Shown here: piece after piece, positions 41,744 to 58,346 of the stretch
How positions within the stretch are numbered: position 1 is the first letter of the stretch
How the letters are laid out: each line of letters starts with the position of its first letter
NCBI GenBank assembly: GCA_964596185.1
Contig: CAZQUE010000020.1
Coordinates: 1 to 58,346, forward strand
Reading direction: 5' to 3'
DNA: 58,346 nt
From: an uncultured bacterium
GTDB taxonomy: Bacteria; Muiribacteriota; Ozemobacteria; Ozemobacterales; Ozemobacteraceae
Translations under genes and position numbers: made by a program
Notes under the pieces: model-generated
The model's input: the letters and a program-made list of their open reading frames with translations, nothing else
What the model was told of the DNA's origin: nothing
The model's database searches: none

Positions 41744-44700
41744 ATGAATGAATATGAATTTGATCAGGAAACGGGGACTGAACCGAGTAAAGAAAATGAG
41801 CTAATTAAAGCCCATATTTTGCCAAAAATTAATTTTGCGATTCAGCAATCTGATGTGTCACTAATTCAACGCGTTTCTCTTGAGAATCCCAACTCTGAAA
41901 AGTTGGAAAATCTTGTGGTTACAATTGAATCCGAGCCGGAGTTTTTTCCAAGATGGCAAAAGCAGATTCCGGTATTGGAAGGGAAAAGCTCTGTCTGTAT
42001 AAATGAGCCCGATTTGAAGCCTGGTTCGGATTTTATGGTCAGGCTCGCAGAGAGATTAAAGGGCAAGATTAATATCAGTCTCGCCAATGGTTCCATGATT
42101 TCTCAAGTTTCAAATGAATTAGAAATTCTCGCCTATAACGAATGGCCTGGCGCCAGAATTGTTCCTGAATTACTCGCTGCATACATTTTACCCAATTCAT
42201 CGGTTGTCGAAAAAATTCTTATGAATAGCCTCGAAATCCTTAAAGGCTGGGGTGACAATTCAGGCCTGACGGGTTACCAGGAAAAAGACGGGAAAAAGGT
42301 TCTCAGAGTTGCTGCCGCCATCTTCAATTCTGTATGCATGCTTGGACTTAATTATGCTGTTGCCCCGGCAAGTTTTGAAGATCACGGTCAGAAAATTCGT
42401 TTTCCTGAAAAAATTGCTGAAAGTTTGTTAGGAAACTGTCTTGATTTGTCGCTGCTTTTAGCCGGTTGCCTTGAAAGCGCCGGCATCAATCCAATCATCA
42501 TTTTTACTGAAGGGCATGCTTTTGTCGGTTTCTGGCTAAAAGACGAAAGTTTCCCTTTAAGCTGGCTGGATGAAGTTTTACCATTGAAAAAACGAGTTGA
42601 GCTGGGTGAAATATGTGTTTTTGAAACGACCGTTTTAACAGGCCCCGGTGGCGATTTTGATACGGCCAGAAGCATTGCTGAAAACAAACTGTCAGAAAAT
42701 GATTTTGTCGGTTTGCTCGATGTAAAAAGAAGTCGCTCACACAACATCAGACCATTGCCGGTGACCTTTAAAGACGGCAAAGTTCAGTTTAAAGCCGATT
42801 TTGTCGTGTCAAAGGAAACTGAAGCCATTCAGAAATTTTTACCTCCTAAGGAAACTGACATAATTGTTGCCGAGAGCGGGGAAAAAGAAAAAAAGACCGA
42901 AAGCCGCATAGATCAATGGAAAAGGAAACTGCTTGATCTTACCTTGCGCAATCGATTACTAAATTTCAAAGAAACTAAAAAGAGTTTGCGAATTCTTACA
43001 CCCTCATTAGGTAAGCTTGAAGATATGCTTGCCGATGGTAAAGAGATTCAGATCAAGGCAATTCCGGACAACATTCTTGGTGGACGCAGCAGAAGTTTGT
43101 TTCTTGAGAATACCGGCAAAGATCTCATAAGCGAGTTTCTTAACAAAGAGTTTCAACAGCATAGAATTTATTCTGATCAAACAGAAAACGAATTGTCGAA
43201 AGGCCTTACGGAAATTTATCGAGAGGCTAGAAATACACTTCAGGAAGGTGGCGCAAATACCTTATTTTTGGGCGCTGGTTTTTTAAATTGGTATGAATCT
43301 GATACCAGCGATTTAAAGCGCTGTGCGCCAATCATTCTGATTCCGCTGGAAATACGAAGGAATTCCGTTCAGGAAGGTTTTCGTATTTGTCAAAGAGATG
43401 AAGAGGCGCAGATAAATGTAACCCTTCTCGAGCTTCTGAAAACCGACTTTGGCCTTGATATTAAGGGGCTTGATCCGCTGCCGTTAGATGATCACGGCAT
43501 TGACCTGGATAAGATTCTGAACACTTTCAGGCGGGCCATCCTTAACATTAGCCGTTGGGAGGTCACTGAAGATTCTTTTGTCGGTTTGTTTCATTTTCAG
43601 AAATTCCTGATGTGGAAAGATCTTGAAAGTAGAACTGATAAACTTCTTGATAACCCGGTTGTTAATCATCTGGTAAATGGTTCTGATCAAAGCTTTCCCG
43701 TTCAGGGCGATTTTCCGATTGCGCAGGAGCTTGATCAAAAATATTCATTAAAAGAGACATTTTGCCCGCTTAGCGCCGATAGCTCACAATTGGTTGCCGT
43801 TCATTCGGCTGCACTTGGCAGAAGCTTCGTGTTGCACGGGCCACCAGGCACAGGCAAGTCGCAAACCATTACCAATATCATTGCTCACAGTATCGCGACG
43901 GGAAAAACTGTTTTGTTTGTTTCTGAAAAGGCTGCCGCACTGAATGTGGTCTATAAAAGACTGTCGAATATCGGTCTGGCACCATTTTGTCTTGAACTTC
44001 ACTCCAATAAGAGCAGCAAGTCTGAGGTGCTGAAGCAGCTTAGCGATGGTTTGAATGCATCTTTTTCCATAAACGATCAAGAATGGGTAGATCAAGCCAG
44101 GCAGCTTGAACAACTTCGTTCAGAACTTAATCAGGTGGCTGACTTGCTTCACAGGGTTCACCCCCTGGGAATATCTCTTTTTCAGGGGATCGGTAAGGTT
44201 TCCTCTCTTAAGGATATGCCGTCAGTTGAATTGAACTGGAATAATTATCTGGAAATTTCAAAAGAACGATTGGAAAAAGTTCTCGATAATCTGCAGCGCC
44301 TGAAAATAACCGGTAAAGCATTTGCAAGTTCTGAAAACAATCCCTGGCAAGGCACCACTGTCATTGAATGGACAATGTCTCTGAACACTGAAATAGAAAA
44401 ACTTGCCCATTCCCTGGAGGAGCAATCTTCGCAGCTGGAAAGCCTTTTTCAACAATTGTCAAAAGATTTGCCCGGCTTGAAAAGGCCGGAGAATTTAGCC
44501 GAAATCAGTCATATTGGAAATTACTTTGAAAATCTTGTCAAGCTCAAAACTGATTCAACGAAGTTGCTAACCAATACCGATTGGGAACCGGCAAGAAAAA
44601 AGTTAGAAAATCTGATCGAGATTGGTCTGGAGTTTACCAGGCTTAGAGATTTAATTTTTGAAACTTTTTCACCCGAGTTCCTTGGTCAGGATCTTGCTTC

Positions 44701-47638
44701 TTTTCACCGAGACTGGAAGCTTGCTTGTGATAGTTGGTGGCCAAAATCCTGGTTTGCCAAAAGAACCATTTTCAATGAAATTTGCCAATTCCTGAACCAT
44801 GGAAAAAATATCGATAAAGAGCAACTCGACAGTCTTCTTTCGCAGGGTGTTGCTGCTAAAGAGAAACTGGCGGCAATCAAGGATAACGGCGATTTCGCTC
44901 TGGAGTGTATTGGTTCACTCTGGGAAAATGAGAATTCTGATTGGAGCTTAATAAGATCTGAACTAGAATTGATAGACAAGCAAAAATTTTGCTTGAAAAT
45001 TCTCAGTCGCAAGGACGCTGCCGAGTTTAAAAGAATAAATGAAATGGTTTTGCATCATTTCGCGACAGTTAAAGCAATGAAGGCAGTTGATTCAGAAACC
45101 TTGAATGTTTGCTTGAAATTCAAAGTTGCTTCTGCCAATCTGATTAGTAGCGCAGAAACAATTTTTGAAAAATTGAAATTCAGTGCACCAGATACTCATG
45201 AAGATTTTTTCGATTTCTTGAAGAATCTTGGTCGAACCTGGCGCAAAAACACAGATACTTTACGAAGCTGGAGCCTGTTCAATAAAACCATTGCCGAAGC
45301 CGAAGAAAACGGTTTGCCTGAAATAATCAAAGCCCTTGAAGAAAAGGAATTTGGTTTGGATGTTGCTGATAAGGTTTTTGAAAAAAGTTTTTTCAAAAGT
45401 TGGACGGCCGAGTTGATTGATCAACATTCTGAACTTAGAGACTTTTCGGGTGAAATTCATAACAGTAGAGTTGAAAAATTTCAGGAGATCGACGAAAAAT
45501 TTCTGGCTTCGACCCGCAAAGTTCTGGTCAGCAGATTGGCCGAAAAAATACCACAAAATGGGCAAAATGCCGTCGGAAACTCTGAGATGGGCATTCTCAA
45601 CCGCGAAATAAGAAAAAAACGCCAACACAAGCCCCTGAGAATTTTGTTCCAGGAGACCTCCAACCTTTTGCCCAGGCTCAAGCCGTGCTTTTTAATGAGT
45701 CCTCTTTCTGTAGCCCAATATCTTTCGACTGAACAGCCTCTGTTTGATCTGGTAATTTTCGATGAGGCCTCGCAGATGCCGGTATGGGATGCAATCGGTG
45801 CCATTGCCCGTGGGAAAAACCTTATTGTGGTGGGCGACCCCAGGCAATTGCCGCCCACGAGCTTCTTCAGCAAGTCAGAAGGCTCAGACTGGGAAGAGGC
45901 CGAATTTGTCGAAGACCTTGACAGTATTCTTGAAGATTGTCTGGCAGCCGGTTTGCCCAGTCTCTACCTGAACTGGCACTACCGAAGTCTCCACGAATCT
46001 CTAATCGCATTCAGCAACTTTAATTATTATGACAATCGGCTTCACACTTTCCCTTCAGCTTATTTTGAGGGCTTGGGGCTTAACCTTGTCCATGTTAAAG
46101 AAGGTATTTACGACAAAGGCAAATCCAGAACGAATAGAATCGAGGCTGAGCGCATCGTGGCCCATATTGTAAAGCGGTTGAAAGATCCGGCATTGAACGT
46201 TTTTTCAATCGGTGTCGTTACTTTCAATGCCAGTCAGCAAAGTCTCATTGAAGATCTGCTCGACGAAGAAAGAAGAAAGAGCCCGGAGATTGAGCCTTTT
46301 TTCAGCGAAAACAATTCGGAAAGCCTTTTTGTAAAAAATCTTGAAAATGTTCAGGGTGATGAACGTGATGTCATCATATTTTCAATTTGTTATGGCAGAG
46401 ATTTAAATGGCCGAATGAGTATGAATTTTGGTCCTGTAAACAAGGCCGGTGGTGAAAGACGACTTAACGTTGCCGTGACCAGAGCTCGTCGCGAGGTTCT
46501 GGTTTTTTCTTCAATCTTGCCTGATGAAATTGATCTTTCACGAACCAGAGCGATTGGTGTCAAACATCTTAAGTCTTACCTCGATTTTGCCAGAAGAGGC
46601 GAACAGGCAATTAAAGAAACCATCTCCGAATTTAATCAGGAGCTTTATGATTCGCCATTTGAAAAAGAAGTTGCAGAGGCATTGAGGCAAAAAGGTTTTG
46701 AAGTTCACACCCAAATTGGTTGCTCTGGTTATAAAATTGATCTTGCGGTTGTTCACCCGGAATACCCCGGCAGATACCTTCTCGGCATAGAATGTGACGG
46801 TGCGGCCTATCATTCCGCTAAATGTGCCCGCGAAAGAGACAAATTGCGTCAATCTGTTTTAGAAAGCCTGGGCTGGAAATTGCATCGGGTCTGGTCGACT
46901 GACTGGTGGCATGATTCTTCAAGAGAGGTTGAAAAAACGATAAAAAAGATCGAAGATGTTTCGAAAGAGCCACTTGCCGAGTTTGCGTCGATCAGTCCGG
47001 TAGCAGAAAAAGAGCGGGTTGTTGATTTTTCTGCACCATTCGAAAGTAGCTATTTGAATAACCAACCAACTAATCCCTTTGAAAAGTCATACACTGAATG
47101 GCGACCTTCTGAAAGTTTATTCAACTCCGATCAATTCTATTCCTCAGTTTATGACTACAGAATCAAAAAACTGATTTCAGAGATTGTCAATTTTGAAGGT
47201 CCGATAACCTTAACAAATCTTACCAGAAAGGTTTGTACGCAATTTCAAATCAGTCGGGCCACACAAAAGGCTCAGCATAGAATCGAGACTTTAGCCAGGG
47301 GCTGCGGCGGAATTTCTCAAGAAATATACAATAACCAGCTTTCATACTGGCCGGAAACCCTGACAATTTCAGATTACAGAGAGTTTCGAAAAAATACCGA
47401 CACGGCTTCAAGAAAAGCAGAAGATATACCGCATCAGGAAGTGGCTGTTGCGGCATTCTCTGTTCTAAGTGAAAATATAAGCATTGAAATTCCTGATCTG
47501 GTAAGGGCTACCGCAAATTGCTTCGGCTTTTCAAGAGTAGGCCAGAATGTTGAAGGCTCAATGCTTGTTGGCATTGAATACATGATCCAAAACTTTCCGG
47601 TGAATAAAGAAGGCGAAAGAGTTGTCTGCACCCAATAG
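41744..47638 (+). CDS. giant DNA-helicase-related protein: transglutaminase-like N-domain + DUF4011 + SF1 (Upf1-like AAA_11/AAA_12) helicase + DUF3320 + DUF559/REase_MTES_1575 endonuclease-like C-terminus
   Basis: 1964 aa. Cys/His/Asp transglutaminase-like core (GNCLDLS...EGHAFVGF). Walker A GPPGTGKSQT. Motif II/III region VVGDPRQLPP. Motif V/VI NVQGDERDVIIFS..NVAVTRAR. C-terminal GIECDGAAYHS...RD..R...L...GW...RVWSTDW. Confidence 0.75.
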   Translation: MNEYEFDQETGTEPSKENELIKAHILPKINFAIQQSDVSLIQRVSLENPNSEKLENLVVTIESEPEFFPRWQKQIPVLEGKSSVCINEPDLKPGSDFMVRLAERLKGKINISLANGSMISQVSNELEILAYNEWPGARIVPELLAAYILPNSSVVEKILMNSLEILKGWGDNSGLTGYQEKDGKKVLRVAAAIFNSVCMLGLNYAVAPASFEDHGQKIRFPEKIAESLLGNCLDLSLLLAGCLESAGINPIIIFTEGHAFVGFWLKDESFPLSWLDEVLPLKKRVELGEICVFETTVLTGPGGDFDTARSIAENKLSENDFVGLLDVKRSRSHNIRPLPVTFKDGKVQFKADFVVSKETEAIQKFLPPKETDIIVAESGEKEKKTESRIDQWKRKLLDLTLRNRLLNFKETKKSLRILTPSLGKLEDMLADGKEIQIKAIPDNILGGRSRSLFLENTGKDLISEFLNKEFQQHRIYSDQTENELSKGLTEIYREARNTLQEGGANTLFLGAGFLNWYESDTSDLKRCAPIILIPLEIRRNSVQEGFRICQRDEEAQINVTLLELLKTDFGLDIKGLDPLPLDDHGIDLDKILNTFRRAILNISRWEVTEDSFVGLFHFQKFLMWKDLESRTDKLLDNPVVNHLVNGSDQSFPVQGDFPIAQELDQKYSLKETFCPLSADSSQLVAVHSAALGRSFVLHGPPGTGKSQTITNIIAHSIATGKTVLFVSEKAAALNVVYKRLSNIGLAPFCLELHSNKSSKSEVLKQLSDGLNASFSINDQEWVDQARQLEQLRSELNQVADLLHRVHPLGISLFQGIGKVSSLKDMPSVELNWNNYLEISKERLEKVLDNLQRLKITGKAFASSENNPWQGTTVIEWTMSLNTEIEKLAHSLEEQSSQLESLFQQLSKDLPGLKRPENLAEISHIGNYFENLVKLKTDSTKLLTNTDWEPARKKLENLIEIGLEFTRLRDLIFETFSPEFLGQDLASFHRDWKLACDSWWPKSWFAKRTIFNEICQFLNHGKNIDKEQLDSLLSQGVAAKEKLAAIKDNGDFALECIGSLWENENSDWSLIRSELELIDKQKFCLKILSRKDAAEFKRINEMVLHHFATVKAMKAVDSETLNVCLKFKVASANLISSAETIFEKLKFSAPDTHEDFFDFLKNLGRTWRKNTDTLRSWSLFNKTIAEAEENGLPEIIKALEEKEFGLDVADKVFEKSFFKSWTAELIDQHSELRDFSGEIHNSRVEKFQEIDEKFLASTRKVLVSRLAEKIPQNGQNAVGNSEMGILNREIRKKRQHKPLRILFQETSNLLPRLKPCFLMSPLSVAQYLSTEQPLFDLVIFDEASQMPVWDAIGAIARGKNLIVVGDPRQLPPTSFFSKSEGSDWEEAEFVEDLDSILEDCLAAGLPSLYLNWHYRSLHESLIAFSNFNYYDNRLHTFPSAYFEGLGLNLVHVKEGIYDKGKSRTNRIEAERIVAHIVKRLKDPALNVFSIGVVTFNASQQSLIEDLLDEERRKSPEIEPFFSENNSESLFVKNLENVQGDERDVIIFSICYGRDLNGRMSMNFGPVNKAGGERRLNVAVTRARREVLVFSSILPDEIDLSRTRAIGVKHLKSYLDFARRGEQAIKETISEFNQELYDSPFEKEVAEALRQKGFEVHTQIGCSGYKIDLAVVHPEYPGRYLLGIECDGAAYHSAKCARERDKLRQSVLESLGWKLHRVWSTDWWHDSSREVEKTIKKIEDVSKEPLAEFASISPVAEKERVVDFSAPFESSYLNNQPTNPFEKSYTEWRPSESLFNSDQFYSSVYDYRIKKLISEIVNFEGPITLTNLTRKVCTQFQISRATQKAQHRIETLARGCGGISQEIYNNQLSYWPETLTISDYREFRKNTDTASRKAEDIPHQEVAVAAFSVLSENISIEIPDLVRATANCFGFSRVGQNVEGSMLVGIEYMIQNFPVNKEGERVVCTQ

Positions 47639-47705
47639 GCCTGGACATTTTATTATTACAATAAACTGTATTATACAAAGTCATTTGACAATTCTTTTCG
47701 AAAAA

Positions 47706-47764
47706 TTGCAAAAATGTTATTTTTGCAAAAAAGCTTGACTCTTTATCTCTAAATTTGCTAAAAA
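47706..47764 (+). promoter_or_regulatory. perfect inverted repeat TTGCAAAAA-TGTTA-TTTTTGCAA next to a sigma70-like -35 TTGACT / -10 TAAAAT upstream of the hsd operon
   Basis: Palindrome at 47706-47728. TTGACT at 47735-40. 18-nt spacer. TAAAAT at about 47759-64. Lies in the AT-rich 160-bp leader before the first hsdS. Confidence 0.3.
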
Positions 47765-47809
47765 TGTAGTAACGACATTTTTGTAAATTTAAGTTGAGTG
47801 ATTCGGTTA

Positions 47810-48400
47810 ATGAAAATCAAGCTGAAAAAGATGGCAGATGTCCAGACCGGCTATTCGTTTCGGGGTCGAATCGAGCCCGATTCTGCCGGCGGCTTGGCGG
47901 TCATTCAAATGAAAGACCTGCAGGCTGATAACACCGTAGATTTTTCGAGCCTGACGATGGTCGATATGTCTGACGTAAAGTCTCATCACCTTGTTGAATC
48001 GGGTGACCTTGTCTTTAGATCGCGTGGTCTGGAAACTTCGGCCGCAATTGTTTTAGCAAGCCCAGGCCAGGCGATAGTTTCGGCCCCGCTATTGAGAATC
48101 AGGGTTAAGAAAACTGCAAAAATTTTGCCCGAATATCTGAACTGGTATTTGGCTCAGACCCTGGCGCAGGCCTATTTCAACAGTTACGCGATCGGTACTG
48201 CTCAGAAAATCATTAACAAAGAAGTCCTTGAAGAACTTGAAGTCTTCGTCCCGCCTTTGAAATTGCAGAAAAAAATCGTTGAACTGGCTGCTTTGGCTGA
48301 ATCAGAAAAAATGCTCGTCGAGGCAATAACCCGAAAAAGAAAACAATACGTTGCAGCGCTGCTGATGCGTGCTGTAAAAGGAGAAGCAGATGAACGCTAA
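47810..48400 (+). CDS. hsdS: type I restriction-modification specificity subunit, half-size (single TRD plus central conserved helix)
   Basis: Begins like an HsdS TRD (MADVQTGYSFRG). Ends with the conserved VFVPPLKLQKKIVE...LV block. ~197 aa. Stop overlaps the hsdM start. The GTG at 47798 or the ATG at 47831 are alternative starts. Confidence 0.6.
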   Translation: MKIKLKKMADVQTGYSFRGRIEPDSAGGLAVIQMKDLQADNTVDFSSLTMVDMSDVKSHHLVESGDLVFRSRGLETSAAIVLASPGQAIVSAPLLRIRVKKTAKILPEYLNWYLAQTLAQAYFNSYAIGTAQKIINKEVLEELEVFVPPLKLQKKIVELAALAESEKMLVEAITRKRKQYVAALLMRAVKGEADER

Positions 48401-49958
48401 AATTGATCAAAAAGACATAAACAACGCCGCCTGGGCCGCTTGCGACACTTTTCGCGGCGTGGTCGATCCGGCACAGTACAAAGACTACATTCTAGTCATG
48501 CTTTTTCTTAAGTATATTTCCGATGTCTGGCAGGACCACTATGAAACCTACCGTCAACAATACGGTGAAGATGATGTAAGAATCAGGCGCAAGCTTGAGC
48601 GCGAGCGTTTTGTGCTGCCGAATATCAAACTAACCGAAAAGAATGAAAAAACAGGTGAAGAAGCTGTTCTAGATGAGTTTCCGGCAACTTTTTATGCGCT
48701 TTACGAACGTCGTTCCGAGCCTAACATCGGCGAGCTGATCAATATCGTTCTCGATCATATTGAAGAAGCCAACAAAAGCAAGCTTGAGGGCGTTTTTAGA
48801 AATATTGACTTCAACAGCGAGGGCAATCTTGGCAAGACCAAAGACCGAAATCGTCGCCTCAAACAATTGCTTGAAGATTTCCACAAACCCCAGCTCGATA
48901 TGAAACCGAGTCTGGTTGCCGAAGACGTTATCGGCAATACCTATATCTACCTAATCGAAAGATTTGCTTCTGATTCGGGAAAAAAGGCTGGCGAATTCTT
49001 TACGCCGCTCAAGGTTACTGAGCTTGTCGCCATGCTTGCTGCGCCGAAAACGGGCGATCGAATCTGCGATCCGGCCTGCGGCTCGGGCGGGCTTTTGATT
49101 CAGGCTGCTCGGCAGGTCGGCGACCGGGATTTCGCTCTTTTCGGTCAGGAATCAAATGGCAGCACCTGGGCCCTTTGCCGCATGAACATGTTTCTTCACA
49201 GTTTTGACAGTGCCAGGGTCGAATGGTGCGACACTCTCAACAGTCCGTTGCTGGTTGAAAATGATCGATTGATGAAATTCAATTGCGTTGTTGCAAATCC
49301 GCCTTTTTCGCTTGATAAATGGGGGGCTGAAAACGCCGAAAGCGACCAGTATAATCGCTTCTGGCGTGGTGTGCCGCCGAAGAGTAAGGGTGACTGGGCT
49401 TTTATCAGTCACATGGTTGAGGTCGCCATTGAAAAAGCCGGTCGGGTGGCAGTGGTAGTGCCGCATGGGGTGCTGTTCAGAGGAGCCGCCGAAGGGCGAA
49501 TTCGTCGCAAAATGATTGAAGAAAACCTGCTCGATGCCGTCATCGGTTTGCCCGGCAATCTGTTTCCGACAACTAATATTCCCGTGGCTATCCTGGTATT
49601 CGATCGGGCCCGCGAAAAAGGCGGCGCACGAGAATCCTGCAAAGATGTTATTTTTATCGACGCCAGCTCTGAATTTACCCCCGGCAAAAATCAGAACACC
49701 CTGTCTGATGAGAACCTCGAAAAGATCATGACCACTTTCAAAGCTCGCAGGGAGGTCGAAAAATATGCCCATCTGGCAACGTTTGAAGAAATTAAAGAGA
49801 ATGACTTCAATCTTAATATTCCGCGTTATGTTGACACCTTTGAAGAAGAAGAAGAGATCGATATCGACGCGGTTCAGCTTGAAATAGAACAGCTCGAGAA
49901 AGAGCTGGCCGAAGTGCGTCTGCAGATGGCTGAAAAAATCGCTCAGATCGAGCGGTAG
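48390..49958 (+). CDS. hsdM: type I restriction-modification DNA methyltransferase subunit (N6-adenine)
   Basis: HsdM N-domain. AdoMet motif I DPACGSGG. Motif IV NPPFS. C-terminal acidic coiled coil. Confidence 0.85.
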   Translation: MNAKIDQKDINNAAWAACDTFRGVVDPAQYKDYILVMLFLKYISDVWQDHYETYRQQYGEDDVRIRRKLERERFVLPNIKLTEKNEKTGEEAVLDEFPATFYALYERRSEPNIGELINIVLDHIEEANKSKLEGVFRNIDFNSEGNLGKTKDRNRRLKQLLEDFHKPQLDMKPSLVAEDVIGNTYIYLIERFASDSGKKAGEFFTPLKVTELVAMLAAPKTGDRICDPACGSGGLLIQAARQVGDRDFALFGQESNGSTWALCRMNMFLHSFDSARVEWCDTLNSPLLVENDRLMKFNCVVANPPFSLDKWGAENAESDQYNRFWRGVPPKSKGDWAFISHMVEVAIEKAGRVAVVVPHGVLFRGAAEGRIRRKMIEENLLDAVIGLPGNLFPTTNIPVAILVFDRAREKGGARESCKDVIFIDASSEFTPGKNQNTLSDENLEKIMTTFKARREVEKYAHLATFEEIKENDFNLNIPRYVDTFEEEEEIDIDAVQLEIEQLEKELAEVRLQMAEKIAQIER

Positions 49959-49975
49959 ATTCCGGGAGGTATTAC

Positions 49976-50860
49976 GTGAACAGGAAACTAATAAACAATC
50001 ACTATCAGACATTTGAGGATATAAAACAAACCAACGGCCAGGGTGAAGAATTCTGGCTGGCAAGGCCACTGGCAAGGATTCTTGAATACTCTGATTTTCG
50101 AAATTTCCTTCTCGTTATCGAAAAAGCACAGCAGGCGTGCAAAAACAGTGGCCAGGCGGTTAAGAACCATTTCGTTGAAATCACCGAAATGGTCAATCTC
50201 GGTTCAGGAGCTGAACGCGAAGTTAAATCTTTTGCATTGTCGCGCTATGCCTGTTATCTGATCGTTCAGAACGGCGACCCGACCAAGCCGGTCATTGCTA
50301 ACGGGCAGACATATTTTGCCATTCAGACCCGCCGCCAGGAGCTCGCCGACAACGAAGCTTTTCAGCGCCTCAAAGAAGATGAAAAGCGGCTTTTTCTGCG
50401 TAATGAAATGCGCGAGCATAACAAGCAGCTGGTTGAAGCCGCTCAGCAGGCCGGCGTAAAAAGCAATCTCGATTTTGCCGTCTTTCAGAATCATGGTTAT
50501 AAAGGGCTTTACGGCGGCCTCGATGCCAAAGGCATTCATGCCAGAAAAGGGTTGAAAAAGAGTCAGAGCATTCTCGACAACATGGGCAGCACCGAACTTG
50601 CCGCCAATCTTTTCCGCGCCACGCAGACCGAAGAAAAACTGCGCCGTGAAAACGTTCAAGGCAAATTGCAGGCCAACCAGACCCACTATGCAGTCGGCAA
50701 AAAGGTTCGCCAGACCATCGAAGAATTAGGTGGCACCATGCCCGAAGACCTGCCAACCCCCGAAGAAGACCTGAAAAAACTCGAACGCCGCACCAGATCT
50801 TCAGATAAAAAGCTGACCAGTTCTGGAAATGCCCCAGAAACCCCGGAGAATGAAGAATGA
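49976..50860 (+). CDS. DinD-like (DNA-damage-inducible protein D family) protein inserted in the hsd operon
   Basis: GGGAGG RBS and GTG start. N-terminal TFEDIKQTNGQGEEFWLARPLARILEYSDFRNF...KAQQACKNSG matches my recollection of the E. coli DinD N-terminus. This family is commonly found between hsdM and hsdS. Confidence 0.5.
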   Translation: MNRKLINNHYQTFEDIKQTNGQGEEFWLARPLARILEYSDFRNFLLVIEKAQQACKNSGQAVKNHFVEITEMVNLGSGAEREVKSFALSRYACYLIVQNGDPTKPVIANGQTYFAIQTRRQELADNEAFQRLKEDEKRLFLRNEMREHNKQLVEAAQQAGVKSNLDFAVFQNHGYKGLYGGLDAKGIHARKGLKKSQSILDNMGSTELAANLFRATQTEEKLRRENVQGKLQANQTHYAVGKKVRQTIEELGGTMPEDLPTPEEDLKKLERRTRSSDKKLTSSGNAPETPENEE

Positions 50861-52020
50861 AAGAAAGTCTTCAGAATTTAAAAACAGTGCTAGGAAAAAT
50901 TGCAGAAATTTCTTCTGGAGGGACACCAGCAAGGGGTGTTCCTGAGTATTGGAATGGCAACATTCCATGGGTTAAAACTACTCAAATTCAAAATTGCCAA
51001 ATTTTTCTGGAGAGCGTTGATGAGTGGATTACTCAGAACGGTTTGAAGAATTCATCGGCAAAAATAATACCAGCAGGCACAATTCTTATGGCTATGTATG
51101 GCCAGGGAAAAACCAGAGGCCAAGTAGGTATACTGGCTTTTGATGCTGCTATAAACCAAGCTTGTGCCGCAATAGAGTTAAAGGGCAATGTTGATCGAGA
51201 TTTTATTTTTCAATCATTATTAGCAAATTATAAAAAAATACGAGCTATAAGCAATGTTGGTGGGCAAGAAAATTTGAGTGCAGGCTTGATAAAAGAGATT
51301 CCGATCTATCTTCCAAAACTTACAGAACAAAAAGCCATTGCCGATCTCCTTTCAACCTGGGACAAAGCCATCGAAAAAACCGAACGCCTGATCCAGGCAA
51401 AAGAAAAGCGTTTTAAGTGGTTGTTACGAGAGTTGATTTTCGAAGCTCAGAAGGTCCAGAAAAACACAGAATGGAAAAAGTTGAAATTGGGGGAAATTTG
51501 TAAGTTATATCAACCCCAAACTATCTCCAAAGAGGATATGTGCCAAACAGGGCCCTTCAAAGTGTTTGGAGCCAATGGCGTAATTGGTTTTTATGAAAAG
51601 TATAATCATGAAGAACCAGAAATTGCTATTACCTGCCGAGGAGCAACATGCGGAACTATAAATATAACAGAACCTAAAAGTTGGATTACAGGAAACGCGA
51701 TGATTGCCCAACCAAATGAAAAGAAAATGCTGAAGAATTTTCTTTATTACTCACTTTTGGTTGCCAATATGAAATCAGTAATCTCTGGTGCTGCACAACC
51801 GCAGATAACGAGGCAAGATTTAGCCCCTTTAAATGTCTTGGTTCCTCCTTTGGAGAGCCAAAAACAAATTGCTGAAACATTGTCTTTTTCTCAAAATGAA
51901 ATCGATCTGCTGAAACAGCTGGCAGAAAAATACAAAACACAAAAGCGCGGGCTAATGCAAAAGCTACTAACCGGCCAATGGCGGCTTAAGTCCGAAATTA
52001 TTAATAGATTCAAGGAGTAG
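50857..52020 (+). CDS. hsdS: type I restriction-modification specificity subunit (full length, two TRDs), low-GC
   Basis: Two TRDs. Each is followed by a conserved block (IPIYLPKLTEQKAIADLL and NVLVPPLESQKQIAETL). ATGA overlap with the dinD-like stop. ~38% GC versus ~50% for hsdM. Confidence 0.8.
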   Translation: MKESLQNLKTVLGKIAEISSGGTPARGVPEYWNGNIPWVKTTQIQNCQIFLESVDEWITQNGLKNSSAKIIPAGTILMAMYGQGKTRGQVGILAFDAAINQACAAIELKGNVDRDFIFQSLLANYKKIRAISNVGGQENLSAGLIKEIPIYLPKLTEQKAIADLLSTWDKAIEKTERLIQAKEKRFKWLLRELIFEAQKVQKNTEWKKLKLGEICKLYQPQTISKEDMCQTGPFKVFGANGVIGFYEKYNHEEPEIAITCRGATCGTINITEPKSWITGNAMIAQPNEKKMLKNFLYYSLLVANMKSVISGAAQPQITRQDLAPLNVLVPPLESQKQIAETLSFSQNEIDLLKQLAEKYKTQKRGLMQKLLTGQWRLKSEIINRFKE

Positions 52021-52117
52021 TTGTTTGGCAAAAGATGCTCTGATTATGGCCAGTTTTTTCATCAATGGTAATAGATTATAGTTTAATCCTTAAGATAACG
52101 AAATTGAAGAGGGCAAA

Positions 52118-55100
52118 ATGAAAATAAAAAATGGATCATCTGATACAAAACTTCTTGCAAGCGGTGGTGGAGATGGAACAGCAATAGGGGTTAAGTTTCA
52201 GTCTGAGATTGGTGCAGTATTTCTTACCAATCTTTTGGCAGAAGTTTCTTTGGATAGAAGATTATTTTTGAAAGAAACTAAAGCGCTGATTCTACGCTTT
52301 GAAACTGAAGCTCCAATAGATGATATTCTTGTAGAGACCGATGAAGGTGGCTTTATTGCAATTCAAGCTAAGGCAAATTTGAACTCTTCAAAAAATATTG
52401 ACAGTGAGTTTGGAAAAACTATTAAGCAAATTGCCCGACATTACTTTGCTTGCAAACAAGACACTAATGTATATGGTTGGGATCGAACAAATGATTTAAA
52501 TAAAGACAGATTTCTTATTGCTGTTGGTGAAAAAACCTCGGGGATGATTCGGCATCATTTGCGCGAGGGTTTAAATGCCAGGAGGCAAACTCTAATTGGC
52601 GAAAAAGCGAAATTTACCAAAAAACAAAAAGAAGCTTTAAGTAATTTTGATTGCTGTTTAAAAAAAGCGTGGGAGTCAATTACTTCAGATCCTTTCAATG
52701 ATCAAGTTAAAAAGGAAATTTCTTGCCTTACTGTAATAATTTCTTATGACATTGAGGGTAGTGAGAGAGCAGCCTTAATTCAGCTACTGAAACCGTTAAT
52801 TTTAGATAGAACAAAGCCGGAGATTGTTCTGGAACTTTTGGCTGGTTTTTCCATTGATATGATGGCAGCAAGGTCTAGTATAAACAATCAGTTTTTAAGG
52901 AGATTTCTTTCTCAAAAAGGCATTTCTGTAGATGCTTTAGAAAAATTTAGAGAAGACATTAAATCTCTAAAAAAATATTCAGATAAAGTGCAGCATATTC
53001 TTTCAAGATATGAATCAATCGAAAATACCGAGAATGAAATGGTAAAAATTTCAAGGACTTGTCAGAAGAATTTGATTGAATCGATTCTTAACGGTTCATT
53101 GCTCATTATTGGTGAGCCTGGTTCTGGCAAGAGTGCGGCAATAAATGTAGCTAGTCGAGAGCTTAAAGAGCTGGGGCACGATGTTGTTGAGCTTGCTGTT
53201 GATCAACTTCCAGTAAATTCTTTAGAAGGGTTGGCATATGAATTAGCTATAGACAATTCATTTGTTGAAGTGCTTAACAATTGGGAAGGTGAGAAACCAG
53301 GTTTTGTGATGATAGATGCTCTTGATGCTACTAGGGGTGGATCTAATGAAGCTGTTTTTCGAACCTTGATTTCAAATGTGATTTTATCTAATTCTCGCTG
53401 GCGTATTGTTGCGTCAATACGAGTTTTTGACTTAAAACTTGGACAGCAATTTCAAAGCTTATTCAAAGGGGAACCTCCAGATAAATTATTGCAAGATCCT
53501 TTATTCCCAAGAGTTCGCCATGTAAAAATTCCTATTTGGCAAAAGGAAGAGATGCAGGAATTACTTGCAAAGTTTCCTGCCCTTAAGCTGGCCTTAGAAA
53601 ATGTACCCGAAAGGGTTCGAGAGCTGGCAACAGTGCCTTTTAATACTAAATTATTTGCCGATCTGCTTTCAAGCGGAATAGAGTCAGATGAGTTTGTTAA
53701 GATTTATACTCAAGCGGAGTTATTGCAACTTTATTGGAATTGTAAAATTTCTTCCTTGGGCGAAGCTGGGAATGTACAGCTTCGAAAAATTGTTTCAGTT
53801 ATGGTGAATGAAAGAACCTTGAGGGTTTCAAAGCAAAAAGTGATTGATCATGATCCATCAATTTTACAAGCCTTGTTCCAAAAAGGTGTACTAGCTTCAA
53901 TTGGAAATGATAGATATTTAAGTTTCAGACACCACATTCTTTTTGATTTTGTTGCGAGCAAGGTTTATCTGGATTTAGATGATATTAAATCTGGAAAAGC
54001 TATTTTTTACAAAAAAGATGCTTTAGGCTTAATGTTAGGGCCAGCTTTTTCATTCCTTTTGGAAGAACTTTGGTTGTTAGATGATTCTCGCGATGATTTT
54101 TGGAAAGCGGCGTTTTTTATTCTTGGGCAAGATCTTTATGATCCTGTAATAAAAAGTTTGATTTCTAGATTGGCTTCCGAGTTATCACAAAACTATTCAG
54201 ATTTAGAATTCTTGGCAAAATCTATTAAAGAGGGGAATGAAAAATCTAAGGAAGTATTAAAGCAGATAATTGGTTCCCTTATAGTGAAGCTCGAAGATCA
54301 ACAAGCAAATAGCGTGTCGCATTGGACAAAATTTTTAGCCAACATTGTAGAAGCGACCGATTTTGTTTTTTGGGAAATGAAAAATCTGTCATATCTATTA
54401 ATTGATAGGGTAAATTGCCAAAAAGATCTTGAAAATATTGGAATTGCAGCTCGGGCCCTTTTAAATTTTTCCTTTTCAAAAAATCAAATGATTCCAGAGT
54501 TAATAGCATCTTCAATAGAACTCGTAGCCAAAACTTATTCTACAGACGAAAGGGCATCTAGAAGACTTTTAGAAAAAATTTTTGCAGAAAGTAGATTTCA
54601 AGAATTTGGACCGATTGAAGTGCCTGCTTTAACTGAAAATATAAGTTCTGTGGCTAAAACGGATATCGATTTTGTAGTTGAAATTTTTAGAAACGTTTTT
54701 CGATTAGAAATACAAAATGATAAACCAACTCCTATGGGGAGCAGCCAAATTTTGCCCCTGGTTTCAAATACTCGACAGGATTTTGAGATGGCTCGTTATT
54801 CTCTTGAGGTTTTTTTTCCATCTTTTTTAGAATCTTACCCGGAAGAAGCGACTAAAGCATTAATTCACTCAATTGAGGGCTTTTTTTTGCGGAAGCATAG
54901 TGAGTTAAATGGTGGAAAGACGGTCGGGATTAAAACACCAAGTGGAAATGTTACATTAAAAGAAGATATGAGCTGCTATTGGGCACCAGATCCATATGAT
55001 AATTATAATATGGATGCTATGACTCTATTAAAAGAGTTTACAGATAAATTGGAAACATTGCCGGCAAATAAGTGTATGCAAATTGTACAGATGGTAATTT

Positions 55101-57010
55101 CTTCAAATAAGTTAGCAATAGTTTGGGCAAGATTATTAATGGCCGCTGTAAAAAGGACTGAGATTTTGGGTGACCTTTTATTTCCTATTGCTTGCTCAGA
55201 ACCATTTTTGGTTTCGCCTGATACAAGAAAAGATTCAATTGATCTTTTGGCAAAGCTTTATTCAAAAAAAACTGTAGAAGAAAAAGAGGCTTTTGAAAAT
55301 AAGGTATTAAAGTTTGATTTTTCAAGATTTGAATCCCCAGATCAGGCCAAAGAAAGGTTTTTACTGACCATATTTAATGCAATTGGCACGAAATTACTTG
55401 TGACAGACAGCGCAAAATCATTTCTCGACAAAACTGAAGTAAGAGAAATTCAGAATGAAAGGCCTGTAAGAGTTGGTTCTGGTTGGGTTGAAAAAGAAGA
55501 AAAATATTGGTGGTTGAGGGAGTGTGGAGTAGAGGTAGATTCTTCCGAAAATAAAAATTTGATCGCCGCTGTTGAAATGGCTCAACAAAAAATTGAAATC
55601 TCCGACGGCCAAGGAGAATTTGAAATTGGGTTTAAGGAAAAAATTAAAAGGCTGGAAGGGTTATTTTTTGAAATTGAAAAAAGTTTTGAAAAAAAATTAA
55701 ATGAAAAGCTCATTTTGTTCGCCGAAGGGGTATTAGGGGAAGAAATTGAAAAACTGTCTGCCAGCAAGGAATTATTTGATTTTTCACACCGGGTTTCTGC
55801 TTTAAAAGTTACAGATTGGGTCGTCCGGCTTTCTGAATCAAAATCCCCCCAAACAGAAGAGCATACAGAGGAAAAATTTGAGACCAACCCCTCATGGAGT
55901 TCTCCAGCAACTAGGATTAGTGTTGCTAAATCAGCTTTTAACCTTTGCTTGATTGAAAACGAAATTTTCCAAAAATTAAAACCAGTAATTGAAAATACCT
56001 TAGTGGATTCACATCCAGCAGTAAGAATGAGCGCTGCAATTTCATTAGGGATTTTGGGGAGACTGGATTTAAAATGGATATGGGAATTAGGCGAAAAATT
56101 TATTTACCGAGAAAAAAATCAGGCAGTATTAAAATTTTTTGTAAACTCCTTCTTAAATCAGTTCCTACACCATGATCCCGAAAAAGTTGAGCTTCTAACT
56201 TTAAAATTGCTAGATAAAATAACTAAATCTGATGACAAGCTTAATCGTGGAACCATGGAAGCACTTGGGAGATTGATTACATTGCTTTGGGCCTCGCATG
56301 GCCGAGAAAAGTCGAAGGAAGTGCTTCTTGATTGGAATAAAAACTTTTTTGATTTTTTTGATGGCCTCTCGTATTCAATTTTCACCTTAAGAGATGGTTT
56401 GGTCCTAGGATATGAAGATGAAAATTCAGAAGATGCACTTGTTAGGGCTCGGTGCTTTGAAATTCAACTTCTATTAACTAAGAATTGTATTGGCATACTA
56501 AAAAAGCTATTACAGGAATCAAAGCAAGTATCTAATATTCAAAATTGCTATAAATTCATTGATGGGTCTTTGATGCAGGTATTTTTTGCTTCAGGAGCCT
56601 TTAATAGTAATAAAGACCAAAAGGATGGGCTTTCATCAATCTCTGCAAAAAAGAAGTTTCTTGATGATGTAGAAGTTTTTTTAAAAGATGTGGGGGCTGT
56701 TGGTTCTCCTCGCACAATCTACCACCTTCTTCAACTTTTAGAATTCTTGTTACCAGCAAACCCTTCAAAAGTGTTTGAAATAATGAGTGCTTCCATTTTG
56801 TTAGGTGGGCGCGAGCGTGGTTTTCAATTCGAGTCTTTAGGTGCAAACTTAACCGTTAAAATAGTTGGCATATTTCTAGCAGACCATCGAGAGATTTTTG
56901 AAGAAAAAGGCAATAGAGAAAAACTTGTTGAATGTTTAGAGCTATTCCAATCGGCGGGCTGGCCATCATCTCGGCGATTGCTTTACCGCCTTCCGGAGTT
57001 GTTGCAATGA
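52118..57010 (+). CDS. giant NTPase: Mrr-like PD-(D/E)xK N-domain + P-loop (STAND/NACHT-like) NTPase + long HEAT/ARM-like helical repeat region (candidate antiviral STAND-like protein)
   Basis: 1630 aa. GAGGG RBS. N-terminus has G..FQ....a.LL ... D-ILVETDEGGFIAIQAK, i.e. the Mrr_cat-like order G.FE / D / (E/Q)xK. Walker A LLIIGEPGSGKSAA (about aa 330) and Walker B GFVMIDALDATRG. The C-terminal ~1000 aa is all-helical with HEAT-like signatures (DSHPAVRMSAAISLGILG). Very low GC. Confidence 0.55.
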   Translation: MKIKNGSSDTKLLASGGGDGTAIGVKFQSEIGAVFLTNLLAEVSLDRRLFLKETKALILRFETEAPIDDILVETDEGGFIAIQAKANLNSSKNIDSEFGKTIKQIARHYFACKQDTNVYGWDRTNDLNKDRFLIAVGEKTSGMIRHHLREGLNARRQTLIGEKAKFTKKQKEALSNFDCCLKKAWESITSDPFNDQVKKEISCLTVIISYDIEGSERAALIQLLKPLILDRTKPEIVLELLAGFSIDMMAARSSINNQFLRRFLSQKGISVDALEKFREDIKSLKKYSDKVQHILSRYESIENTENEMVKISRTCQKNLIESILNGSLLIIGEPGSGKSAAINVASRELKELGHDVVELAVDQLPVNSLEGLAYELAIDNSFVEVLNNWEGEKPGFVMIDALDATRGGSNEAVFRTLISNVILSNSRWRIVASIRVFDLKLGQQFQSLFKGEPPDKLLQDPLFPRVRHVKIPIWQKEEMQELLAKFPALKLALENVPERVRELATVPFNTKLFADLLSSGIESDEFVKIYTQAELLQLYWNCKISSLGEAGNVQLRKIVSVMVNERTLRVSKQKVIDHDPSILQALFQKGVLASIGNDRYLSFRHHILFDFVASKVYLDLDDIKSGKAIFYKKDALGLMLGPAFSFLLEELWLLDDSRDDFWKAAFFILGQDLYDPVIKSLISRLASELSQNYSDLEFLAKSIKEGNEKSKEVLKQIIGSLIVKLEDQQANSVSHWTKFLANIVEATDFVFWEMKNLSYLLIDRVNCQKDLENIGIAARALLNFSFSKNQMIPELIASSIELVAKTYSTDERASRRLLEKIFAESRFQEFGPIEVPALTENISSVAKTDIDFVVEIFRNVFRLEIQNDKPTPMGSSQILPLVSNTRQDFEMARYSLEVFFPSFLESYPEEATKALIHSIEGFFLRKHSELNGGKTVGIKTPSGNVTLKEDMSCYWAPDPYDNYNMDAMTLLKEFTDKLETLPANKCMQIVQMVISSNKLAIVWARLLMAAVKRTEILGDLLFPIACSEPFLVSPDTRKDSIDLLAKLYSKKTVEEKEAFENKVLKFDFSRFESPDQAKERFLLTIFNAIGTKLLVTDSAKSFLDKTEVREIQNERPVRVGSGWVEKEEKYWWLRECGVEVDSSENKNLIAAVEMAQQKIEISDGQGEFEIGFKEKIKRLEGLFFEIEKSFEKKLNEKLILFAEGVLGEEIEKLSASKELFDFSHRVSALKVTDWVVRLSESKSPQTEEHTEEKFETNPSWSSPATRISVAKSAFNLCLIENEIFQKLKPVIENTLVDSHPAVRMSAAISLGILGRLDLKWIWELGEKFIYREKNQAVLKFFVNSFLNQFLHHDPEKVELLTLKLLDKITKSDDKLNRGTMEALGRLITLLWASHGREKSKEVLLDWNKNFFDFFDGLSYSIFTLRDGLVLGYEDENSEDALVRARCFEIQLLLTKNCIGILKKLLQESKQVSNIQNCYKFIDGSLMQVFFASGAFNSNKDQKDGLSSISAKKKFLDDVEVFLKDVGAVGSPRTIYHLLQLLEFLLPANPSKVFEIMSASILLGGRERGFQFESLGANLTVKIVGIFLADHREIFEEKGNREKLVECLELFQSAGWPSSRRLLYRLPELLQ

Positions 57011-58346
57011 GCGATTCCGGAGAGAAATATCGATTTAAAGAAAAATTACATGAGACAATTTCTAGATTTGCTACCAATGAAAAAAAACGAAATAGGACTT
57101 TTTCTGGGGCTGAGGCGAAAGAGCCTTTAGAACACACTACTAGAATTTATTTGTTGGATGAAATTGTAAAAGCTCTAGGATGGAACCTTTCTCTGGGTGG
57201 TGACATTCTTGAAGAGGCTCGAATTAAAGATGATACAACTAACTATGTTGATTATCTTGGCATTGATCCTGATAAAGGCATTCCCTTAATGATTATTGAG
57301 GCTAAAGCATGGAATCGGCCATTTATTCGCGGAAAGACCGGGAATTCTCCGTCTAGCCCAGATGAGCTTTTGTTTAAGGCTATAGAGCATATCAAGGCAG
57401 AAGGTAAAGAAAATGAATCTCCTGTGATTAAAGACTGGCATGATTGGTTGGTTCAAGTTAGAGGGTATGTTTGCGATTTGTACAATAACTTTAATCATTC
57501 CGTCGCTAAATTAGTTTTAACATCAGGAAAATGGCTGGTAATTTTTCGAAAACCATTAGAAACATTTGGTGGTAGAGCTCCTTTGGAAAAGAGTGATTGG
57601 GTAATTCTTCAATTAGATGATTTTGTAAGAAGATCAGATGAAATTTTTGCTGAAATAGCGAGAAAAAACCTTGTTGAATCTATTCCTGCTAGGATTTGGG
57701 AAAGTCAAGTCAGAGCTTTTTTCTGTATTGAGGATTTGCAGGGAGTTTATAATACAGTTTTAGTAAAATACGAGAAATCTGGTCATTGTGATGTTGAAAT
57801 TTTTCCAAGAATACTTTTATATCCGGCAGTTACATTGGTTAGAAGAGATCGCAAATCTACTACTGTTATAAATAAAGAATATCTAATCCTTCCATTCTCA
57901 GATAACCCTCGGGAGCTGTTAAGTCATTTTGATGAATTTGCCAAAATCTCACAGAGATTGTTGGATAAGATTTCAGATGAATTGAGAAGAGAGTTAAAGC
58001 CTTCAGGGTTAGCTTCTTATCCTTTTGACAATTTCGTTCAAATGTGCGACTTTGGCGTTGGCTCTGGAAGCGTAATTACAGGTGAATTAACACATTTTCT
58101 TTTGAAAGCCCCCCCCCTAAAATGCAAATACCATTGTTGGAAAAACTGCAGAAATGATGGCGTTGAAATAAATCAAAACTCAATTGAAAGACGGTCAATA
58201 GAACCAAGATCCTATTTTAAGAGTGGTGAAATCTATCATTGTGCAAATTTAAATATGCATAACAAAAGAAAAAGTCGCTGCAAAATTGGCCCAATAGATG
58301 AATATCTTTGTTGTAAAGCCTGTGTGCTTTTCCAGATTTGTTGGCC
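57007..58346 (+). CDS. HsdR-N-terminal-like PD-(D/E)xK nuclease-domain protein with Cys-rich (zinc-finger-like) region; 3'-partial (runs off window)
   Basis: ATGA-coupled to the upstream giant gene. Absent from the ORF track because no stop occurs in the window. Motif VDYLGIDPDKGIPLMIIEAKAW matches the nuclease core of type I R-subunit N-domains / HSDR_N_2. No helicase Walker A in the 446 visible aa. C-terminal Cys cluster C.YHCWKNC...YHCANLNMHNKRKSRCK..CCKAC. Confidence 0.5.
   Translation, partial: MSDSGEKYRFKEKLHETISRFATNEKKRNRTFSGAEAKEPLEHTTRIYLLDEIVKALGWNLSLGGDILEEARIKDDTTNYVDYLGIDPDKGIPLMIIEAKAWNRPFIRGKTGNSPSSPDELLFKAIEHIKAEGKENESPVIKDWHDWLVQVRGYVCDLYNNFNHSVAKLVLTSGKWLVIFRKPLETFGGRAPLEKSDWVILQLDDFVRRSDEIFAEIARKNLVESIPARIWESQVRAFFCIEDLQGVYNTVLVKYEKSGHCDVEIFPRILLYPAVTLVRRDRKSTTVINKEYLILPFSDNPRELLSHFDEFAKISQRLLDKISDELRRELKPSGLASYPFDNFVQMCDFGVGSGSVITGELTHFLLKAPPLKCKYHCWKNCRNDGVEINQNSIERRSIEPRSYFKSGEIYHCANLNMHNKRKSRCKIGPIDEYLCCKACVLFQICW

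Follow-up and report, generated by a model that had tools for sequence, protein, structure and literature searches.

In type I restriction-modification (R-M) enzymes the M2S complex methylates DNA and R2M2S translocates and cuts it, with the two target recognition domains (TRDs) of a long S subunit defining an asymmetric bipartite target (PMC3874165). Some described systems also encode a shorter S protein. In the staphylococcal hsdRSMS systems (S. xylosus TMW 2.1023/2.1324, S. equorum pC2014-2; Schiffer et al. 2023, PMC10030836) an hsdS_short of ~191 aa lies directly upstream of hsdM and a two-TRD hsdS_long lies downstream, and S. xylosus hsdRSMS in E. coli methylated only the long-S motif, properly only with hsdS_short, with no palindromic motif (PMC10030836). 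In BlihIA of Bacillus licheniformis DSM13 a complete and a one-TRD HsdS are encoded in one operon and both co-purify with the complex, and a single, asymmetric motif was found (PMC12429846). We examined an operon of similar layout in a 58,346-nt stretch of contig CAZQUE010000020.1 from an uncultured Ozemobacteraceae bacterium (the window, used here for the whole stretch analysed). A gene for a short, single-TRD HsdS-like protein (short S) is followed there by hsdM, a dinD-like gene and a full-length hsdS, all on the + strand and all with open reading frames (ORFs) that translate intact, which is the order described in an earlier note on this DNA.

The region is best explained as the 5' two-thirds of a complete type IC-like R-M operon, which would belong to a widespread, horizontally mobile operon class with the core order short S, hsdM, (cargo), long hsdS, (cargo), hsdR and a YgjP/SprT-like peptidase gene. 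We give this explanation as a whole a probability of about 0.7. The apparent anomaly of the locus then dissolves, as the operon would be complete and conventional for its class, and its oddities would come down to a conserved fourth gene, embedded cargo and the boundary of the window. The features are as follows.

47639-47809, + strand: AT-rich spacer of ~160 nt (24.5% GC), 5' of the short S gene
47798-48400 (GTG start) or from 47810 (ATG start), + strand: short HsdS-like gene, Pfam Methylase_S in one stretch
48390-49958, + strand: hsdM, with HsdM_N and N6_Mtase domains, TIGR00497
49976-50860, + strand: dinD-like gene, NF008573 DinD, Bro-N, PADLOC PDC-S13
50857-52020, + strand: full-length hsdS, Pfam Methylase_S in two stretches
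52118-57010, + strand: PDC-M54A, PADLOC PDLC04702
57007-58346, + strand: PDC-M54B, partial at the window edge, PADLOC PDLC04706

The first four genes are translationally coupled, with an 11-nt overlap between the short S stop and the hsdM start and a 4-nt overlap between the dinD-like stop and the start of the full hsdS. The hsdM product (522 aa) matches PF12161 (HsdM_N) and PF02384 (N6_Mtase) (E = 2.9e-101) as well as TIGR00497 (295 bits, cutoff 243), and the catalytic motifs DPACGSGG and NPPF are visible in its translation. The nearest solved HsdM chains were 3lkd and 7vru at 295-299 bits, with EcoR124 (7bst) at 224 bits. This protein is predicted to be the m6A (N6-methyladenine) methyltransferase subunit, of a type IC-like lineage.

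Compared with the staphylococcal hsdRSMS systems, the operon shares the position of the short S gene and the two-TRD long S downstream, a short S that is conserved over its whole length across systems of different specificity and is not part of the long S, a type IC-like HsdM, and a location on mobile DNA. Unlike the window class, which is ordered S-M-S-R-peptidase, the staphylococcal systems have hsdR upstream with its own promoter (R-S-M-S) and an operon without embedded cargo, whereas the long S of the window starts 0.9 kb past hsdM, after the embedded dinD; HsdM is 37% and the short S 21% identical between the two. BlihIA, compared here by its published description and not by sequence, has no embedded genes reported. 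The truncated type IC HsdS proteins (NgoAV, the EcoDXXI and EcoR124I deletions, and a lactococcal protein) likewise have a single TRD and one conserved helix, with dimerisation through the helix expected, and accompany a type IC-like HsdM lineage. However, those are truncations of a variable S that serve as the only specificity subunit or as an extra one and give palindromic targets, while the short S of the window is a separate conserved family accompanying a full S. Esub1 of Streptococcus pyogenes (PDB 8VSQ, 8VSR; PMC11754733) is similar in size (196 aa), TRD-like head and C-terminal dimerisation helix, and forms a homodimer in crystal and solution (PMC11754733). It differs in being encoded away from hsd genes, in having an extra insertion helix bound by phage paratox, and in that HsdM binding was not shown; it is 18% identical to the window's short S.

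A protein scan with HsdM, taking one genome per species, gave 80 loci in which HsdM was 66-92% identical to that of the window, spanning Riflebacteria, Chlorobi, Desulfobacterota, Spirochaetes, Fibrobacter, Nitrospirae, Proteobacteria, Planctomycetes, Dehalococcoidia and a Methanolobus archaeon. Genes in these loci were named from ORF maps and clustering, with Pfam and PADLOC scans of cluster representatives. The short S was counted using a family hidden Markov model (HMM, >=80 bits) over all ORFs upstream of hsdM; greedy ORF maps undercount it (54 of 69), as over-extended hsdM ORFs mask the gene in GC-rich loci. A short-S orthologue, typically ~192 aa (range 190-232 aa), was observed upstream of hsdM in 74 of the 80 loci, with four loci cut at that end and two without it. 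The operon is thus not atypical, contrary to the earlier note: the arrangement is present in 74 of 76 informative relatives and in plasmids annotated by the Prokaryotic Genome Annotation Pipeline (PGAP). These plasmids, pZN5-103kb (Proteus) and pGOX1 (G. oxydans 621H), carry S(198 aa)-M-S-R-SprT, with 52-55% identity to the window in HsdM and 30-31% in the short S.

The order that recurs among the loci is short S, hsdM, 0-3 cargo genes, long hsdS, 0-5 cargo genes, hsdR and a YgjP-like peptidase gene. The hsdR product is ~1066 aa with HSDR_N, SWI2_SNF2 and T1R_D3 domains, the peptidase gene is usually next to it, and the distance from long S to hsdR ranges from -36 to +5766 nt. A full-length S was kept in 46 of the 50 loci with a complete M-to-R interval (the other four carry S fragments). 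On sequence grounds, the short S counts as a fourth core gene in this HsdM clade. A gene so far reported only in staphylococci and Bacillus has a near-universal counterpart in a highly mobile, many-phylum HsdM clade, and this wide spread and tight linkage go beyond the short-S accounts of the papers cited here.

Two of the loci are mentioned separately. In L006, a Methanolobus sp. metagenome-assembled genome (MAG), the HsdM encoded at 10001-11566 is 86% identical to that of the window and the layout is short S-M-...-S-...-R; an HsdM this close in an archaeon implies that operons of this class recently crossed between domains, unless it is a binning artefact. In L073, a Dehalococcoidia MAG, tandem hsdM genes (522 and 506 aa) follow one short S with a DinD-like fragment after each, which could be a duplication or two stacked systems.

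The earlier note had reported no hsdR in the 6 kb downstream of the operon. Within the window this stands, since no hsdR was found there; the downstream genes are PDC-M54A and PDC-M54B, and the other large ORFs scanned were housekeeping genes. As a trait of the operon it does not stand, because of two further contigs. Exact-protein look-ups with the window's M54A, HsdM and short S (GTG start) gave no match, and the contigs were identified through homologues. Logan contig L085 was reached via P0001, the full-length M54B, and Joint Genome Institute (JGI) contig L088 via P0021, a 98% identical homologue of the short S. L085 matches the window from 56690 to 58346 with 0 mismatches in 1657 nt and runs 723 nt further, placing the 3' end of PDC-M54B (460 aa in full) at window-equivalent 58389 and the beginning of a Fic gene at 58468. 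The Fic of L085 is 90% and 85% identical to the hsdR-abutting Fic of L001, the closest relative, and of L005, and every one of the 8 loci with this Fic cluster has it immediately before hsdR, in most cases overlapping by 4 nt. L088 is ordered ProA(3' end)-short S-HsdM-DinD-HsdS(407 aa)-Fic-HsdR and is 98.0% identical to the window over 45300-50861 and 99.0% identical over the Fic region (58449-59069). Its Fic overlaps an HsdR with HSDR_N, SWI2_SNF2 and T1R_D3 domains that is 87% identical to the HsdR of L001. An hsdR in a standard arrangement just beyond the window, which the earlier note had allowed for, is essentially what L085 and L088 provide, short of hsdR in the source genome. The "missing" hsdR is almost certainly an effect of the window edge, judging from these alignments, and we infer with high confidence that Fic, hsdR and the peptidase gene would lie ~0.1, 0.9 (alternatively ~1.6) and 4 kb past the window end.

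The same observations bear on whether the operon is degenerate, i.e. a decaying M-S methylase that lost hsdR and was interrupted by insertions, with the short S as a remnant. Such decay would fit a window without hsdR and with foreign low-GC DNA after hsdS, and hsdS or hsdM is fragmented in a few relatives (L004, L008, L021, L029, L041). However, all four ORFs are intact and coupled, and synonymous codon changes between the window and L088 exceed nonsynonymous ones in the short S (8 and 4), hsdM (20 and 4) and dinD (15 and 3). Hundreds of short-S homologues are full length, and just past the window lies a Fic gene 99% identical to that of an hsdR-carrying contig, of the same kind that precedes hsdR in relatives. 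We consider a degenerate operon very unlikely, and an orphan methylase with a lost hsdR was rejected on the Fic of L085 and the Fic-HsdR of L088.

L088 also serves as a comparison for the long S. The full hsdS of the window encodes 387 aa, in which two TRDs are accompanied by conserved helices in the centre and at the C-terminus, and in the alignment of the long-S family the top-residue frequency was 0.81 in conserved regions and 0.23-0.38 in TRDs. Although L088 is a sister locus on a 98% identical contig, both TRD1 and TRD2 differ from those of the window, and the two hsdS genes could be aligned only at 51325-51415 (a 91-nt central region, 98.9% identical) and 51898-52012 (80%). The long hsdS therefore carries variable TRDs that were exchanged recently, which agrees with the replacement by horizontal exchange that the earlier note had suggested from base composition. 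The GC content was 46.8% in the short S, 48.6% in hsdM, 49.2% in dinD and 38.9% in the full hsdS, and the 35.9% GC of the two genes after hsdS continues the low-GC block; the lower GC of hsdS is as the note had said, while the drop from hsdM is 9.7 points instead of ~12%.

The second difference from L088 is a 6.4-kb cassette of PDC-M54A and PDC-M54B, absent from that contig, which fills the last 6 kb of the window. Compared with the empty site in L088, its insertion point is between the hsdS stop and the ribosome-binding site of Fic. The comparison thus indicates that the window has had both TRDs exchanged and a 6.4-kb M54 cassette inserted, and the two loci form a natural before-and-after pair, with TRD exchange and a candidate cassette at a precise point between S and R. 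PDC-M54A is a P-loop (STAND-like) protein of 1630 aa that matches PDLC04702 over its full length (1760 bits), with weak AAA and nSTAND3 matches at residues ~316-417. PDC-M54B matches PDLC04706 (455 bits) and is 100% identical to P0001 (460 aa), with an N-terminal D...EAK (PD-(D/E)xK-like) motif, a sub-threshold HSDR_N match at residues 67-101 and a Cys-rich C-terminus. A 41% identical M54B homologue (P0003; L086, L087) adjoins M54A-sized genes outside any R-M operon, and in L086 it is near transposase and integrase genes.

The dinD-like gene occupies the slot between hsdM and hsdS. Its product (294 aa) matches the NCBIfam DinD model NF008573 (484 bits, cutoff 242) and PADLOC PDC-S13 (412 bits) and has an N-terminal Pfam Bro-N domain. 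About 20 of the 80 loci have a DinD-cluster gene in the M-S slot, which in others is filled by RhuM (PDC-S05) or KilA-N (PDC-S22). Cargo between S and R in the relatives includes Fic, SIR2-HerA, SMODS, Schlafen-like and DUF1016 genes, and L001 carries SIR2-HerA and Fic there. PrrC and the rlo genes are examples of defence genes embedded in type I R-M operons. By definition, a PDC family consists of candidates that occur inside BREX, DISARM or type I systems (bioRxiv 10.1101/2024.01.29.577857), so that a dinD-like insert and an M54 pair are what one would expect in an operon of this kind. As in that embedded type I cargo, DinD-like (PDC-S13) and PDC-M54A/B sit between core hsd genes, and in relatives these slots hold RhuM, KilA-N, Fic, SIR2-HerA or CBASS-like genes; what differs here is that the empty site of L088 fixes the M54 insertion to within a few bases, with PDC-S13 and PDC-M54 being defence candidates. 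The dinD-like gene and PDC-M54A/B are thus embedded cargo in two known slots, M-S and S-R, and the window and L088 pair backs guilt-by-embedding as a route to new defence genes.

Two side observations concern these slots. The window DinD matches residues 5-272 of the 717-aa "Specificity_I" profile PDLC03083 of PADLOC (393 bits), so fusions of DinD with HsdS do exist, and DinD-like proteins may be functionally linked to S subunits. The junction of short S and hsdM is a third insertion slot, with one or two small genes (80-430 aa) in ~10 loci, including L013, L014, L015, L020, L024, L040, L044 and L054; one gene cluster (124-168 aa) is recurrent there.

The short S itself is 200 aa when read from the GTG at 47798, but homologues begin at the position of the ATG at 47810, which is likely the true start and gives 196 aa. 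The protein contains a single Methylase_S domain (Pfam, E = 1.4e-10), and its AlphaFold2 model (predicted local distance difference test score, pLDDT, 88) has a globular TRD at residues 1-146 and a 40-residue helix at residues 150-189, the usual PPL..QK motif preceding this conserved-region (CR)-like 40-aa helix. Domain, model and overlap agree with the protein of one TRD plus helix, overlapping the hsdM start, that had been described from the sequence. The nearest solved structure was Esub1 (template modeling score 0.72), with HsdS chains next. A frameshifted or truncated hsdS as the origin of the gene was rejected, as no second TRD could be recovered in any frame, hsdM overlaps the 3' end, the AT-rich spacer lies upstream, and orthologues are uniformly half-size; origin by truncation of the NgoAV type is contradicted by the lack of a TRD2 remnant and by the full S retained in most of the loci.

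Conservation spans the whole short S including the TRD-like head (0.40-0.68 in 20-aa bins), with 35 invariant positions among 65 sequences and numerous conserved basic residues in the head. Across 40 loci, pairwise identity of the short S followed that of HsdM (Spearman 0.82), and for the long S the relationship was weak (0.43). The short S proteins of the window and L088 are 98% identical even though the TRDs of their long S differ. A word-index search found 1082 short-S homologues, the best 120 of which were all 190-232 aa, and a profile search of 1.84 billion representatives gave at least 387 short-S clusters (50% identity) at E<=1e-30. Among the best 150 of these 387 clusters there was no two-TRD S, with lengths all of 111-327 aa. 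Ordinary TRD halves scored 14-62 bits against the family HMM, and the plasmid short S proteins 137-139 bits. As it is conserved over its whole length, co-diverges with HsdM and is not part of a two-TRD S in any of those 150 clusters, the short S is not a remnant, a frameshift fragment or a shufflon cassette, and the earlier suggestion of a remnant of S-gene shuffling gives way to an orthologous family. From sequence comparison it is a conserved stand-alone single-TRD paralogue of HsdS that is co-inherited and co-diverging with HsdM.

The presence of two S-family genes in one operon could also indicate a phase-variable system, as the earlier note had proposed, in which the two genes exchange TRDs by site-specific or homologous recombination; duplicated, switch-capable hsdS genes are found in ~4% of type I loci (cited in PMC12429846; PMC7394358). 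However, the short and full S proteins are only 26% identical, with the similarity confined to the TRD end and helix, both genes are on the same strand, and the short S was not found within any long S in the best 150 of 387 clusters. The longest inverted repeats in 47600-52200 were <=25 nt with 72-76% complementarity, in agreement with the note's remark on the lack of obvious inverted hsdS repeats, and no repeats, inverted or direct, were common to both S genes above chance. No recombinase gene was found in 47.6-58.3 kb. We give phase variation almost no credence, and a shufflon was rejected for want of common repeats and a recombinase gene.

In the mechanism that we propose, the long S would determine which asymmetric bipartite sequence is recognised by the M2S methylase and by the R2M2S nuclease. 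The short S would dimerise via its C-terminal helix, bind HsdM, and act as an accessory subunit for correct assembly, activity or fidelity of the methylase, not as a second diversifying specificity. By analogy, and with moderate confidence, we prefer this accessory function in assembly or fidelity, because S. xylosus hsdRSMS and BlihIA share the layout, each has a single motif, and proper methylation in the former depends on its short S. More tentatively, and at slightly below even odds, the short S may define a very large cross-phylum type IC-like class with a fourth core subunit, the head being either an assembly, fidelity or regulatory factor for M2S/R2M2S or a fixed-target module. If true, the textbook three-subunit picture would be incomplete for a major share of type I enzymes. 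The role also matters for predicting from sequence whether an operon yields one motif or two, and for reconstituting type I enzymes heterologously; no usable methylomes for hosts of the family (Gluconobacter, Acetobacter) turned up in the literature.

The main alternative is dual specificity, which the earlier note had also raised, where a homodimer of the short S mimics a symmetric S and, with the common HsdM and HsdR, forms a second enzyme acting on palindromic bipartite sites alongside the long-S enzyme. Half-S proteins are known to dimerise and give palindromic targets, such as the EcoDXXI and EcoR124I truncations, NgoAV and an S. aureus half-S (PMC3874165, PMC6158711), and in a lactococcal system that was already complete, addition of a single-TRD S led to methylation of TTAAN5TTAA and to higher phage resistance (PMC12418389). 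The modelled helix after the PPL..QK motif, the homodimer formed by the nearest structure and the many conserved basic residues in the head would also suit such an enzyme. Net charge did not discriminate DNA binding (means of +2.5 for the short-S head and +3.7 to +4.2 for ordinary TRDs, with a wide spread). A specificity determinant would, however, be expected to diversify by TRD exchange, whereas the short S is conserved throughout, diverges in step with HsdM and was not observed inside any two-TRD S among the best 150 of the 387 clusters. There was no locus with the short S as the sole intact S, the four of 50 that lack a full S carrying S fragments. The staphylococcal short S added no palindromic motif, and a single motif was found for BlihIA. 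We regard dual specificity as unlikely, though less so than a degenerate operon, and retain the accessory role as the preferred reading.

Several points weigh against the explanation given here. No sequence showed the source genome's hsdR directly, the L085 extension ending inside Fic, and an exact DNA search of JGI metagenomes for the M54B-Fic junction gave 0 matches, so that the source genome's own hsdR was not recovered. The authors of the S. xylosus study could not achieve complementation of hsdS_short in trans and had no protein-level data (PMC10030836). Orthology to the staphylococcal hsdS_short could be neither shown nor excluded at 21% identity (pairwise E = 0.003). With the family HMM that protein scores 41.5 bits, no more than ordinary TRD halves can reach, so what holds for its function may not apply here. 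The 21% does fit the fall of short-S identity with HsdM identity, as an extrapolation only. Short-S identity drops to 22-30% across the family, leaving room for changes in specificity, and a truncated ordinary S can add a palindromic specificity alongside a full system (PMC12418389).

The AT-rich spacer 5' of the short S is the presumed promoter/operator region of the operon, by its position. It holds a 16-nt inverted repeat (47702-47717 / 47775-47790, 88% complementary), and a scan for consensus sigma-70 promoters and terminators over 47.4-52.4 kb gave fewer promoter-like sites than in shuffled sequence, with none in the spacer. We also observed that TTGCAAAAA-like words recur in the spacer (47639-47809), which may be an operator or promoter, and that the alignments of the window and L088 shift by 1 nt at some point from ProA to the short S.

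The gene directly upstream of the R-M operon (41744-47638, + strand) encodes a 1964-aa protein with DUF4011, a superfamily 1 helicase (AAA_11/AAA_12), REase_MTES_1575 and DUF3320. It matches the NCBIfam model "anti-phage protein ProA" (2135 bits, cutoff 1500) as well as PADLOC PDC-S37 and Hhe, and the same adjacency was observed in the close relatives L088 and L090; a search of the literature on ProA turned up nothing usable. ProA and the R-M operon together make up a defence island whose start immediately follows the EF-G gene (39394-41475). Further upstream, a few kb from the island and among housekeeping genes, an ATPase with AAA_14 and DUF4143 is encoded at 37088-38257 (- strand), a family that is frequent in mobile or defence contexts.

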